Assembly: GCA_052325545.1 (NCBI GenBank)
Contig: JBKQUP010000028.1
Location: forward strand, 7,166 to 71,165
Source of the DNA: Thermoplasmata archaeon
GTDB lineage: Archaea; Thermoplasmatota; Thermoplasmata; Lutacidiplasmatales; UBA184
Reading direction: 5' to 3'
DNA length: 64,000 nt
Under the pieces are notes generated by a model that saw only the letters and a program-made list of their open reading frames with translations, made no database searches and was not told the origin of the DNA. Every line of letters starts with the position of its first letter. Position 1 is the stretch's first letter. Of this stretch, positions 10,213-13,744 are shown piece after piece. The translations under genes and the position numbers were made by a program.

Positions 10213-13200
10213 GTGGAGTCGTATTTTCGGTCGGTCGAGGCCGAGGTCGACCGCGCGTACGTAGTCGCGGAGAAGGCCCGTCACTCCGGCTACGACCCCG
10301 AGGTCACTCCCGAGATCCCGCGTGCCCAGGACATGGCGATGCGCGTCGAGAAACTCCTCTCCCACCTCGGGATCGAAGGGATCTCGACCGAGATCCGCGC
10401 GCTCTCCGCTACCATGCCTCGCGAGGAGGTCGCGCTGACCATCGCCCGCCGGATCGCACGCGACCCGGCCCGGGGCGATTCGGTGGCAGCGCGCGTGGAC
10501 GCCGCGCTCCGGGTCGGCCTCGCGATCCTGACCGAGGGGATCCTCGTCGCTCCGCTCGAGGGGCTGGCCGAGGTCCACGTCCATGAGGACCGGGAGCACG
10601 GCCCGTACATCGAGCTCTACTACGCGGGTCCGATCCGGGCCGCAGGCGGTACCGCTCAGGCCTTGAGCGTGCTGCTTGCCGACGTCGTCCGTCGGGACCT
10701 CGGCTTGGCCGCCTTCCATCCGGAGCCCGACGAGGTGGGGCGCTACAAGGAGGAGATTCCGCTCTACAAGTACCATCAGCATCTCCAGTACGTTCCCACC
10801 CCGGAGGAGATCGACCTCGTAGTCCGCCACGTTCCCGTGGCGATCTCGGGAGAGGCGACCGAAGGCGACGCGGAGGTCAGCGCGTTCCGGAACCTGCCCC
10901 GCGTTCCCACGAACGGGATCCGTGGAGGGGCGTGCCTCGTCATCGCCGAAGGGCTCTGCCAGAAGGCGGCGAAGCTTCGGAAGATCGTCGACAAGCTCGG
11001 GCTCGACGGTTGGGAGTTCCTCTCCGACATCGGCCATAACACCGCCGATGACGAGGAGGCCCGGACGCCGAAGTACCTCCAGGACTCGGTCGGGGGCCGG
11101 CCGGTCCTCGCGCACCCGAACCATCCCGGGGGCTTTCGGCTCGTCTACGGTCGGGCCCGCACGACGGGCCTCGCGGCGTGCGCGATCAACCCGGCGACGA
11201 TGGTGCTCCTCCAGAACTTCGTCGCGATCGGGACCCAGGTCAAGCTCGAGTATCCCGGGAAGGCGACGGCGATGGGGGTCTGCGACACGATCGAGGGTCC
11301 CATCGTCGAGCTCGACGACGGCACGGTCACGGCCGTTCACGACCTCGCGCGAGCGGAGGAGCTCCGTTCGAGGGTGCGGAGGATCGTCGACCTCGGCGAG
11401 ATCCTGGTCTCGTTCGGGGAGTTCCTCGAGAACAACCGTCCCCTCGTCCCCGCGGGGTACTCCCTCGACTGGCACCTCGAAGAACTTCGTGCGGTGGGAG
11501 CCACCGAAGCCGAAGGGCTCACCGTCACCACGTACGAGGACGCCGTGCGGGTCTCCCAAACGTACCGGGTCCCGCTCCATCCCCGCTGGCTCCTCTTCTG
11601 GCACGACCTTACCCCCGGAGAGGTGCGGGCGCTCGGGGAGTTCGTCGAGCGCAGCGGCCATTGGGTCGACAGGTCGCTCGTGATACCTGCGGACCCGTTG
11701 TGGCGGGAAGCCCTCGTGCGGCTCGGTTTCCTTTTCGCCCCGGTCGGCGGGGACGACCTTCGCGGAGAGCCCGACGCATCCGCCGCGCTCGTCGGAGGCC
11801 TCGGCCTCGCATCCGAAGGGGAGCGATTGGTCCGTCGCGCGCCGCTCGACCCGGTCGAGGAGGACACCCTCGCCTACGTGAGCCGTCTCGCCGGGGTCCC
11901 GGTCCGGGCCCGGGGTCCGTCCCGCGTCGGCGGACGCGTCGGCCGTCCGGAGAAGGCCTACCACCGGAGCATGCAACCGAACGTCCACGGGCTCTTCCCG
12001 GTGGGGGCCGCGGGTGGTCCGAAGCGCTCGCTCCCCGACGCGGCTCGCAGAACGATGCGCGAGGGGGTGAAGGTCGACCTCGGGGTCCGGAGCTGTCCGG
12101 CGTGCGGTCGCTCGACCGTCTGGACCCGGTGCCCGTGCGGAGCCCATACGGAGCCCACGGGCCGGACCATCTCCGAGCCCCTGCCGATCGCTCGCCTCTG
12201 GAGCGATGCGCTCGAGCGGCTCCATCTCGGCAAACCCCCCGTGGTGAAGGGAGTCAAGGGGCTCACGTCCCCGGGAAAGGTCCCGGAGGCGATCGAGAAG
12301 GGGATTCTCCGCGCCTCGCACGCGATCTCGGTCTACCAGGACGGTACCGCTCGCTTCGACCTCACCGACCTCCCGCTGACGCACTTCCGCCCGGCCGAGA
12401 TCGGGACCGACATCGCGACCCTGCACCGATTGGGGTACGCCCGGGACTGGTCCGGCGCGCCGCTCACCGACGACGAGCAGCTGGTCGAGCTCCTTCCCCA
12501 GGACCTTATCGTCGCCCGATCGTGCGGGACGTACCTCACCCGTCTCGCTCAGTTCGTGGACGACGAGCTGGTCCGCCTCTACGATGCCGAGCCGTTCTAC
12601 CGCGCCGATCGGCCGGAGCAGCTCGTCGGCCAGATCGTCGTCGCGCTCGCGCCCCACACCTCGGGCGGGGTCGCCGGCCGCCTCCTCGGCTTCACGAACG
12701 CGGAGGCGTGCTTCGCGCATCCGGTGTTCCACGCCGCCAAGCGCCGGAACTGTGACGGGGACGAAGACTCGGTCACGCTCCTGCTCGACGCGCTGCTGAA
12801 CTTCTCACGGTCCTACCTCCCCGACAGTCGGGGCGCGCTCATGGACAAGCCGCTCGTCCTGACCACGCGCCTCGAGGCCACCGAGGTCGACAAGGAGGCG
12901 CACAACGTCGACGTGTCGAGCCACTACCCCCTCGCGCTCTACCGTGCGGCCGCGGAGCGGCGGGACCCCAAGGAGGTCGAGGCACTGCTCGACCTCGTCG
13001 GTCATCGCCTCGGCTCCTCCCGCTCGCTCTCCGGCTACGGGTTCACCCACGACACCCACCGAATCGCGGGCGGGCCGTCGCTCTCCGCCTATCGCGAGGG
13101 TCGACCGATGGCGGAGCTCGTCGAGCGGTCGATCGTGCTCGCGGCGCAGATCCGGGCGGTCGACCTCGCGGAAGCGGTCACGCTCGTGCTGAATGCTCAC

Positions 13201-13620
13201 TTCCTTCCCGACGTGATGGGGAACCTGAGGAGCTTCGGGACGCAGAAGTTCCGGTGCAAGGTCTGCGAGGTCTCCTACCGGCGGCCCCCGCTCACGGGCC
13301 GGTGCGTCGCGCCGCGCCCCGGGGGCCGGTGCGACGGAGAGCTGCTCTCGACCGTGTACGAGGCGTCGGTGCGCAAGTACCTCCCGCTCGCCCAGCGGCT
13401 CGGGGCGATGGAGGGGATCACCCCGTACGTCCGGCAGCGCATCCAGCTCATCGCCGACTCGGTCGCCACGCTCTTCCCCGGGGCCATCTCCCAGACGACG
13501 CTCGATCGGTTCCGCCCGGAGACCGGGCGGCCCCCGTCCCCCGGTGAGGACAACCCGTCGGTTCTGGGTCCGTCGACCCCTTCGGACACCGGGGACGAGG
13601 AGTCCGGAACGTCCAAATAG
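10213..13620 (+). CDS. polC: DNA polymerase D large subunit DP2 (no intein seen)
   Basis: ILTEGILVAPLEG, YYAGPIRAAGGTAQALSV, GRPVLAHP..GGFRLVYGRAR, AKRRNCDGDEDS catalytic motif, RGALMDKPLVL, two Cys zinc-binding clusters; GTG start. Confidence 0.96.
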   Translation: MESYFRSVEAEVDRAYVVAEKARHSGYDPEVTPEIPRAQDMAMRVEKLLSHLGIEGISTEIRALSATMPREEVALTIARRIARDPARGDSVAARVDAALRVGLAILTEGILVAPLEGLAEVHVHEDREHGPYIELYYAGPIRAAGGTAQALSVLLADVVRRDLGLAAFHPEPDEVGRYKEEIPLYKYHQHLQYVPTPEEIDLVVRHVPVAISGEATEGDAEVSAFRNLPRVPTNGIRGGACLVIAEGLCQKAAKLRKIVDKLGLDGWEFLSDIGHNTADDEEARTPKYLQDSVGGRPVLAHPNHPGGFRLVYGRARTTGLAACAINPATMVLLQNFVAIGTQVKLEYPGKATAMGVCDTIEGPIVELDDGTVTAVHDLARAEELRSRVRRIVDLGEILVSFGEFLENNRPLVPAGYSLDWHLEELRAVGATEAEGLTVTTYEDAVRVSQTYRVPLHPRWLLFWHDLTPGEVRALGEFVERSGHWVDRSLVIPADPLWREALVRLGFLFAPVGGDDLRGEPDASAALVGGLGLASEGERLVRRAPLDPVEEDTLAYVSRLAGVPVRARGPSRVGGRVGRPEKAYHRSMQPNVHGLFPVGAAGGPKRSLPDAARRTMREGVKVDLGVRSCPACGRSTVWTRCPCGAHTEPTGRTISEPLPIARLWSDALERLHLGKPPVVKGVKGLTSPGKVPEAIEKGILRASHAISVYQDGTARFDLTDLPLTHFRPAEIGTDIATLHRLGYARDWSGAPLTDDEQLVELLPQDLIVARSCGTYLTRLAQFVDDELVRLYDAEPFYRADRPEQLVGQIVVALAPHTSGGVAGRLLGFTNAEACFAHPVFHAAKRRNCDGDEDSVTLLLDALLNFSRSYLPDSRGALMDKPLVLTTRLEATEVDKEAHNVDVSSHYPLALYRAAAERRDPKEVEALLDLVGHRLGSSRSLSGYGFTHDTHRIAGGPSLSAYREGRPMAELVERSIVLAAQIRAVDLAEAVTLVLNAHFLPDVMGNLRSFGTQKFRCKVCEVSYRRPPLTGRCVAPRPGGRCDGELLSTVYEASVRKYLPLAQRLGAMEGITPYVRQRIQLIADSVATLFPGAISQTTLDRFRPETGRPPSPGEDNPSVLGPSTPSDTGDEESGTSK

Positions 13621-13643
13621 CCGGCGTCCCGTGGAAGGACGGC

Positions 13644-13744
13644 GGGCTTGTGGGGTAGCCTGGACTATCCTGCTGGCCTTCGAAGCCAGCGACCTGGGTT
13701 CGAAATCGCGGAGGTCTACCGCGGCGAAACTCCCAGCAAGCCCG
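13644..13744 (+). tRNA. tRNA-Arg(TCG) with a 26-nt intron (13705-13730) at position 59/60
   Basis: Acceptor GGGCTTG/CAAGCCC (7/7 pairs), G73, A20, anticodon arm CTGGC-CTTCGAA-GCCAG, T-stem CTGGG/CCCAG. The interruption folds into a strict BHB; removing it gives the T-loop TTCGAAT and a 75-nt tRNA. CCA is not encoded. Confidence 0.92.

Follow-up and report, generated by a model that had tools for sequence, protein, structure and literature searches.

The question raised by positions 13644-13744 of the window, the whole 64,000-nucleotide stretch of Thermoplasmata DNA that was analysed, is whether a tRNA-Arg(TCG) sequence whose T-loop is interrupted by an insert is a real gene carrying an intron at an unusual site and, if so, by what machinery that intron would be removed. 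The comparisons described below establish that the locus is a real and conserved tRNA-Arg(UCG) gene with a strict bulge-helix-bulge (BHB) intron at position 59/60. An earlier note, made from the sequence alone, had parsed the locus base by base, and its stems, bulges, helices and loop all match the sequence exactly. The acceptor stem pairs GGGCTTG (13644-13650) with CAAGCCC (13737-13743), leaving the G at 13744 as the discriminator base; the D-arm has G18, G19 and A20; the anticodon stem, CTGGC/GCCAG, presents the loop CTTCGAA; the variable loop is 4 nt long; and the T-stem is formed by CTGGG (13694-13698) and CCCAG (13732-13736). The CCA end is not encoded at the 3' end of the gene.

Within the T-arm, the nucleotides T54-G57 (TTCG, 13699-13702) form a central helix with the last paired bases of the insert (CGAA, 13725-13728). 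This helix is set between two bulges on opposite strands, AAA (13703-13705) on the 5' side and ACT (13729-13731) on the 3' side, and beyond it lies an inner helix of TCGCGG (13706-13711) and CCGCGG (13719-13724), with one U-G pair, that closes the loop AGGTCTA. Cuts made in silico after the second nucleotide of each bulge remove 13705-13730 and leave the T-loop TTCGAAT, reproducing the excision that the note had proposed, and the resulting order of T54, T55, C56, G57, A58, A59, intron, T60 and then C61 defines the 59/60 position. Given the spliced 75-mer, ARAGORN returns a tRNA-Arg(tcg) of perfect cloverleaf form whose acceptor stem is paired 7/7, and the molecule bears T54-A58, G53-C61 and G18G19 together with the Arg identity elements A20, C35 and G36; this product and the 3-4-3 geometry bear out the proposal of a tRNA-Arg(TCG) with a 59/60 intron in a strict BHB. 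Folded alone, the T-arm with its insert has as its minimum-energy structure exactly the hBHBh' motif, at -17.2 kcal/mol. This local fold was used in place of the uninformative global folds, as whole-molecule minimum-energy folding gives non-cloverleaf structures for both the precursor and the spliced tRNA; the non-cloverleaf fold of the precursor carries little weight because the spliced tRNA shares it. The features of the locus are collected in Table 1, along with those of the splicing enzymes and of the other tRNA genes discussed below.

Table 1. Coordinates of the tRNA-Arg(TCG) locus in the window, and of splicing genes and further tRNA genes with T-loop introns on contigs (C) of the MAG
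Feature	Position	Strand	Description
polC, DNA polymerase D large subunit (DP2)	10213..13620	+	1135 aa; PF03833, PF24844, PF24846, E 1e-102 to 1e-125
Candidate BRE/TATA element	13606..13620	+	GGAACGTCCAAATAG; AAATA core 13615-13619, 24 nt before tRNA 5' end
tRNA-Arg(TCG) gene	13644-13744	+	101-nt precursor including 26-nt insert
5' exon of tRNA-Arg(UCG)	13644..13704	+	tRNA positions 1-59; anticodon TCG at 13680-13682; near-invariant in 30 orthologues
hBHBh' splice motif, 3-4-3	13694..13736	+	h = T-stem, 5 bp; H = TTCG/CGAA; h' = 6 bp
Intron at 59/60	13705..13730	+	26 nt, ATCGCGGAGGTCTACCGCGGCGAAAC; length and sequence vary in orthologues, pairing kept
3' exon	13731..13744	+	tRNA positions 60-73; T60, T-stem 3' strand, acceptor 3' strand, G73
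EndA, sole in MAG	C26:3705-4505		354 aa; PF02778 (N-domains) and two PF01974 (tRNA_int_endo) repeats
RtcB ligase	C9:6119-7423		571 bits
tRNA-Ser CGA	C4:13368-13487		T-loop intron
tRNA-Ser GCT	C6:16315-16430		T-loop intron
tRNA-Ser GGA	C7:11449-11566		T-loop intron
tRNA-Arg TCT	C7:61279-61385		T-loop intron
tRNA-Ala GGC	C7:69507-69612		T-loop intron
tRNA-Gly TCC	C9:59192-59293		T-loop intron
tRNA-Lys TTT	C9:27100-27242		T-loop intron
tRNA-His	C23:8578-8684		T-loop intron
tRNA-Gln CTG	C29:11491-11597		T-loop intron
tRNA-Leu TAG	C29:11316-11463		T-loop intron
tRNA-Asn	C32:755-858		T-loop intron
tRNA-Asp	C37:169944-170049		T-loop intron
tRNA-Glu CTC	C37:12929-13030		T-loop intron

Standard scanners had been expected to fail on such a gene, and those applied here, ARAGORN and Rfam, did. 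On unspliced DNA, ARAGORN calls a 78-nt tRNA-Arg(tcg) at 13643-13720 with a mismatched acceptor stem, and Rfam at its gathering thresholds gives no match anywhere in the window because the insert breaks the tRNA model, which scores the Arg(TCG) locus at 22.1 bits against a cut-off of 29 bits. The archaeal mode of tRNAscan-SE 2 looks for non-canonical introns by default (PMC8450103). When ARAGORN was allowed long introns, false tRNAs appeared by the dozen in the genome, whose G+C content is 68%, and that output was dropped, the tRNA inventory being based on a length-limited run together with the Rfam matches. Routine tools thus mis-annotate a presumably essential Arg tRNA, with the 3' half wrong in the one case and the model under its cut-off in the other, and for this reason gene inventories of abundant soil and peat archaea can falsely report the decoder of CGA as missing.

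Base pairing of this kind also arises by chance, as was seen when the 1.68-Mb MAG was scanned for strict BHB geometry (minimum helix lengths of 3, 4 and 3 bp, with inserts between 14 and 120 nt), which gave 34,121 matches in about 3.6e8 position-by-length trials. The chance of meeting this weaker motif at one fixed position is about 0.01, or about one per hundred genes, and the Arg(TCG) site has helices of 5, 4 and 6 bp. After all scan matches were spliced in silico and submitted to ARAGORN, clean T-loop junctions were found only in Arg(TCG) and three other tRNAs. It is the comparative evidence, rather than any such estimate of chance, that is decisive for the intron.

This evidence was obtained with the 101-nt precursor as a BLAST query against 60 relatives, followed by the alignment of 30 orthologues from the genus. 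Full-length matches to the precursor occur in essentially the entire genus, and all 30 aligned orthologues have nearly invariant exons and an insert of 23-33 nt at 59/60, the removal of which leaves the T-loop TTCGAAT in every one of them. In 29 of the 30 the central helix is 4 bp long; 99.2% of its alignment cells are paired, and the T-stem (h) is 100% paired across the alignment. Pairing reaches 94.3% of cells once the cloverleaf and BHB are imposed on the alignment, compared to 88% in column shuffles and 35-54% after partners are shifted by 1-3 columns. Changes on both sides of a pair are seen in 12 pairs, namely all eight of the inner helix, two of the T-stem and two of the anticodon stem, and none of 500 shuffles reaches the observed values of pairing and covariation; the earlier note had held that a lack of compensatory changes in the BHB of relatives would speak against the intron, and they are present throughout the inner helix. 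The central helix changes on its intron strand only, from A to G, turning a U-A pair into U-G, as expected if the function of the T-loop freezes the exon strand.

The distribution of the intron extends over the family of the window, in which the T-loop intron of Arg(TCG) is found in genera g1, g22, g23 and g24. In genus g21 (L132, G084), a natural intronless tRNA-Arg(TCG) is found, with the junction CCCGGGTTCGAATCCCGG exactly as predicted for the spliced product. Within the family, T-loop introns are least numerous in this genus, at 5-8 per genome. In several other families of the class, tRNA-Arg(TCG) is intronless, and in family f3 of the same order a mini-intron of 11-13 nt occupies the same 59/60 site beside a 13-nt intron at 37/38. 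Both mini-introns, of these lengths, were observed in the f3 Arg(TCG) genes L038 (G040) and L039 (G038); the one at 59/60 reads TTCA-AAA-ATAT-TGAA-AAT, and the f3 mini-introns of Arg(TCG) are almost without an inner helix h'. The EndA of the f3 genomes is likewise of the alpha'2 type, with about 360 aa.

The host appears to need this gene. A second tRNA-Arg(TCG), which in intronless form could have carried the decoding and so told against the earlier reading, was not found in the MAG (89% complete), whose sole Arg(TCG) anticodon arm in a tRNA context is the one described here; relatives that are 97-100% complete have the intron-bearing copy only. The codon CGA occurs at about 10.8 per 1000 codons in long frames of high GC3, and six times in polC alone. 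Since the MAG holds no second copy and CGA codons are in regular use, the Arg(UCG) gene is needed; it is presumably essential, and its splicing likewise.

The polC frame listed in Table 1 confirms that the tRNA starts 23 nt past the polC stop, and the order of polC and tRNA is retained in most relatives of the genus. The further suggestion that the tRNA may be co-transcribed with polC is not favoured by the upstream sequence, in which a TATA-like box lies 24 nt before the tRNA. In 30 of 30 orthologues the GGAACGnCCAAATA element precedes the tRNA by 22-26 nt (mode 24), with a spacer that varies in sequence, and in many relatives the box is intergenic, as their PolC has a shorter tail and ends 53-89 nt upstream of the tRNA. 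In the window, the last codons of polC and its TAG stop fall inside the box of the downstream tRNA gene (13606-13620). Across the genome, AT-rich hexamers at -36 to -20 accompany 61% of tRNA genes, compared to 5.7% of random positions. Because the box is conserved, is intergenic in relatives and matches the position of the box before other tRNA genes, the tRNA-Arg(UCG) gene most likely has its own promoter, as judged from these sequence comparisons, and co-transcription with polC would be unneeded.

The organism itself is an uncultured soil Thermoplasmata archaeon of a UBA184/Lutacidiplasmatales-like group. The contigs with the closest EndA genes all belong to soil or peat MAGs labelled 'Thermoplasmata archaeon', among them UBA184, UBA61 and MAGs from acidic soil described in the Lutacidiplasmatales study, for which a G+C content of about 69% was given (PMC9287336), and the Thermoplasmata-type genome that the note had recognized is thereby upheld. 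Over its full length, the EndA is structurally closest to the dimeric alpha'2 enzyme of A. fulgidus (1r0v, aligned over residues 77-336), and the GFKYG...H...K motif that holds the Tyr, His and Lys residues is present in the C-terminal repeat only. By its sequence, EndA is of the alpha'2 type, composed of tandem repeats of which the C-terminal one would be catalytic; the two PF01974 repeats, the alignment with 1r0v and the location of the Tyr/His/Lys residues thus agree with a euryarchaeal-type endonuclease. Sequence comparison of the catalytic repeat with that of A. fulgidus revealed no insertion around the Tyr/His/Lys residues, and an alignment of 27 EndAs of the class contained no insertion specific to the intron-rich family. 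By these comparisons, the predicted enzyme is without the specific loop (L1/L2/L3) of the broad-specificity (alpha-beta)2 or epsilon2 enzymes. A 6-residue insertion relative to A. fulgidus, SKSGRP, was considered as a cause of the intron expansion described below and rejected, being common to nearly all families of the class, including those free of T-loop introns.

In two families with complete genomes of 1.4-1.8 Mb, f15 and f20, EndA is short, at about 290-300 aa, compared to about 350 aa in all other families (L141-L167). The N-subdomain of its catalytic repeat is shorter by a segment of about 20-25 residues, and another segment is missing from the first repeat. No T-loop-intron matches were found in these two short-EndA families.

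The intron had been thought rare, a view that the rest of the genome overturns. Inspection by eye and a dedicated scan put the number of tRNA genes interrupted at 59/60 in the MAG at 14, or about 30% of the tRNA set, and a covariance model of the T-arm plus BHB insert recovered the same 14 with no further match at E <= 0.1. Applied to 150 genomes of the class, each at least 85% complete, the model gave at least one match in 103 genomes and in 42 of the 64 genera, with 5-16 matches per genome in the family of the window and 0-5 elsewhere. Ten matches from outside the family were inspected, and all ten are T-arms with BHBs of the TTCG-AAN...CGAA-ACT type, at eight of which ARAGORN calls a tRNA once the intron is removed (Trp, Arg TCT, Arg CCG and Lys included). 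The loci L168-L177, from families f2, f6, f24, f26 and f27, have their T-loop introns mostly in Arg tRNAs (TCT, CCG) and also in those for Trp and Lys; in many cases a canonical intron accompanies them, and the boundaries AA/A ... CGAAAC/T (slashes denote the cuts) are the same as those of the intron in the window.

The introns of the MAG are not uniform in their pairing. Eight of the 14 have a central helix in which one position fails to pair, with A57 opposite G in seven of them and C opposite C in tRNA-Asn. Among the eight tRNAs with A57 (a TTCA T-loop), the opposite intron base is G in seven (Ser CGA, Ser GCT, Ser GGA, Arg TCT, Ala GGC, Leu TAG and Glu CTC), with H3 being GGAG, GGGA or GGAA, and tRNA-His is the only A57 case with a pairing T. 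The A57-G introns are not strict BHBs, since their central helix consists of 3 bp and an A-G mismatch, although the EndA is of the alpha'2 type.

The origin of individual introns was also considered. As a source for the Arg(TCG) intron by copying, the best partner is that of Gln(CTG), which shares only GGAGGTC (p = 0.005, uncorrected over 91 pairs and not significant), and this candidate was set aside. A few other pairs look alike. The introns of Ser(GCT) and Leu(TAG), for example, share GGGTCGG...CGGACCGACC, a likeness reached by 0 of 200 shuffles, uncorrected for the 91 pairs and too few to bear such a correction, which hints weakly at copying of introns from gene to gene. Inserts in the D-loop or D-arm that resemble non-canonical introns were seen in Arg GCG (C37:227650-227759), a CAT tRNA (C9:103865-103969), Lys TTT and Leu TAG, and the last two combine such an insert with their T-loop intron.

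Such prevalence invites the idea that the intron is spliced and also selected for a function of its own, perhaps in blocking the targeting of the T-arm or 3' half by integrases and mobile elements, in ordering T-loop modification, or as a stable circular small RNA. A role of this sort would fit the persistence of the intron in at least four genera, the presence of T-loop introns in 14 tRNA genes of one genome and the uniform boundaries, AA/A ... AC/T, over many tRNAs and families; however, a fixed T-loop sequence and the requirements of EndA also account for these boundaries, the sequence and length of the intron are conserved no further than its pairing needs, and the intron is absent without replacement in genus g21 and has shrunk to 11-13 nt in f3. 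This reading is unlikely, and the intron most likely has no function beyond being removed. It is still less probable that the insert is transcribed and kept, to give a mature tRNA with an extra hairpin in place of the normal T-loop. Conservation falls on the cues of EndA, namely a pair of 3-nt bulges separated by 4 bp, an invariant A that opens the intron and an AC that closes it, whereas the length of the helix, the loop and the sequence drift; in such a molecule T54-G57 would be sequestered and the elbow of D- and T-loops could not form, and the sister genus has a plain T-loop. Least probable of all is that the locus is the intronless 78-nt tRNA with an odd T-arm called by ARAGORN, or a decaying pseudogene, with incidental complementarity downstream, for although the call on unspliced DNA and the Rfam score under its cut-off favour it, the 78-nt form demands an acceptor stem with mismatches and many G-U pairs as well as a T-loop of 8 nt, the exons are near-invariant in 30 species around an insert that covaries to keep the BHB, the intronless allele equals the predicted spliced product, and this is the only Arg(UCG) gene of a genome that uses CGA codons.

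The preferred reading, held with high confidence, is that 13644-13744 is the single functional tRNA-Arg(UCG) gene, the decoder of CGA, and that it is spliced by the alpha'2 EndA and RtcB. Transcription would begin from its own putative TATA-like promoter about 24 nt upstream, and in the precursor the T-loop nucleotides 54-57 (UUCG) would pair with the 3' end of the intron (CGAA), thereby extending the T-stem into the 3-4-3 BHB. From this geometry and the known recognition of BHBs, EndA would be expected to cut past A59 (13704/13705) and at 13730/13731, after which RtcB would ligate the 61-nt and 14-nt exons and probably circularise the 26-mer intron. T-loop modification, docking of the D-loop and T-loop, and CCA addition are expected only after splicing, since the T-loop UUCGAAU would form only then. 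It counts against this reading that, to our knowledge, an alpha'2 enzyme has never been assayed on a T-loop substrate. A second point against it is that alpha4 and alpha'2 enzymes are described as acting at the canonical position (PMC4090602). The splicing, the cut sites and the circularisation of the intron are what we infer from established BHB recognition (PMC3239211, PMC4090602). The alpha4 and alpha'2 enzymes are said to require exactly the strict 3-4-3 motif (PMC3239211), and the Arg(UCG) intron is thus mechanistically unsurprising; taken alone, it is the expected substrate of an EndA of strict specificity.

The lineage-wide spread of such introns under an alpha'2 enzyme is more interesting than the single intron. 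Euryarchaeota with alpha4 or alpha'2 enzymes are described as having few introns, at the canonical position only (PMC4090602), K. cryptofilum as alone among alpha2 organisms in having non-canonical introns (PMC4033280), and high disruption of tRNA genes has been tied to loop inserts of EndA (PMC5829648); an expansion of T-loop introns together with an alpha'2 enzyme is a combination that these reviews say does not occur (PMC4090602, PMC4033280, PMC5829648). The balance of the evidence tips slightly towards a lone, loop-less alpha'2 EndA serving T-loop introns in about 30% of tRNA genes, those with mismatched helices included, with essential single-copy tRNAs depending on it. If one EndA does process all 14, the proliferation of introns at non-canonical sites needs no broad-specificity endonuclease, and the rule that alpha4 and alpha'2 enzymes go with canonical introns only, and that EndA inserts drive the disruption of tRNA genes, would need revision. 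The strict Arg(UCG) intron would be the cleanest positive-control substrate for assays in vitro of the tolerance of an alpha'2 EndA to position and mismatch.

The 59/60 intron type itself is already known, this site being a listed non-canonical position (PMC4090602), and is unusually common in this Thermoplasmata lineage. Its architecture is that of the canonical intron at 37/38, with a 5-bp stem, four loop nucleotides paired with the 3' end of the intron, 3-nt bulges and the same cut sites, so that 59/60 on the T-arm is the counterpart of 37/38 on the anticodon arm and the same EndA and RtcB are expected to act on it; the difference is that the T-loop, rather than the anticodon loop, is masked until splicing. 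In ARMAN-2, the 59/60 position is shared, the intron of pre-tRNA-Pro(GGG) has the same strict 3-4-3 hBHBh' (PMC3239211), and an archaeal EndA was able to cut a 59/60 intron of tRNA-Cys in vitro (PMC3239211). The EndA of ARMAN-2, however, is a three-unit epsilon2 enzyme with a specific loop and broad specificity, whereas the enzyme predicted here is of the alpha'2 type without such an insert, and the isoacceptor and lineage are Arg(UCG) and Thermoplasmata. With the introns of Crenarchaeota, Thermoproteales in particular, those described here share protein-spliced BHBs outside of the anticodon loop, an occurrence in many tRNA genes per genome and a tendency to be missed by standard finders, and 59/60 is among the positions listed for that group (Marck and Grosjean 2003, along with Sugahara et al. 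2008, both as cited in PMC4090602). Those organisms have an (alpha-beta)2 EndA with a Crenarchaea-specific loop, many relaxed motifs and many positions, whereas the expansion in this lineage is concentrated at 59/60 and the Arg(TCG) intron is strict. A further related case is the D-loop intron of pre-tRNA-Glu(UUC) from Methanopyrus kandleri, also at a non-canonical position in a euryarchaeon whose EndA is without the specific loop (PMC5829648), but that intron has a relaxed HBh' motif, lies in the D-loop and is poorly cut in vitro, and the enzyme of its host is (alpha-beta)2, while the intron of tRNA-Arg(UCG) is strict and lies in the T-loop.
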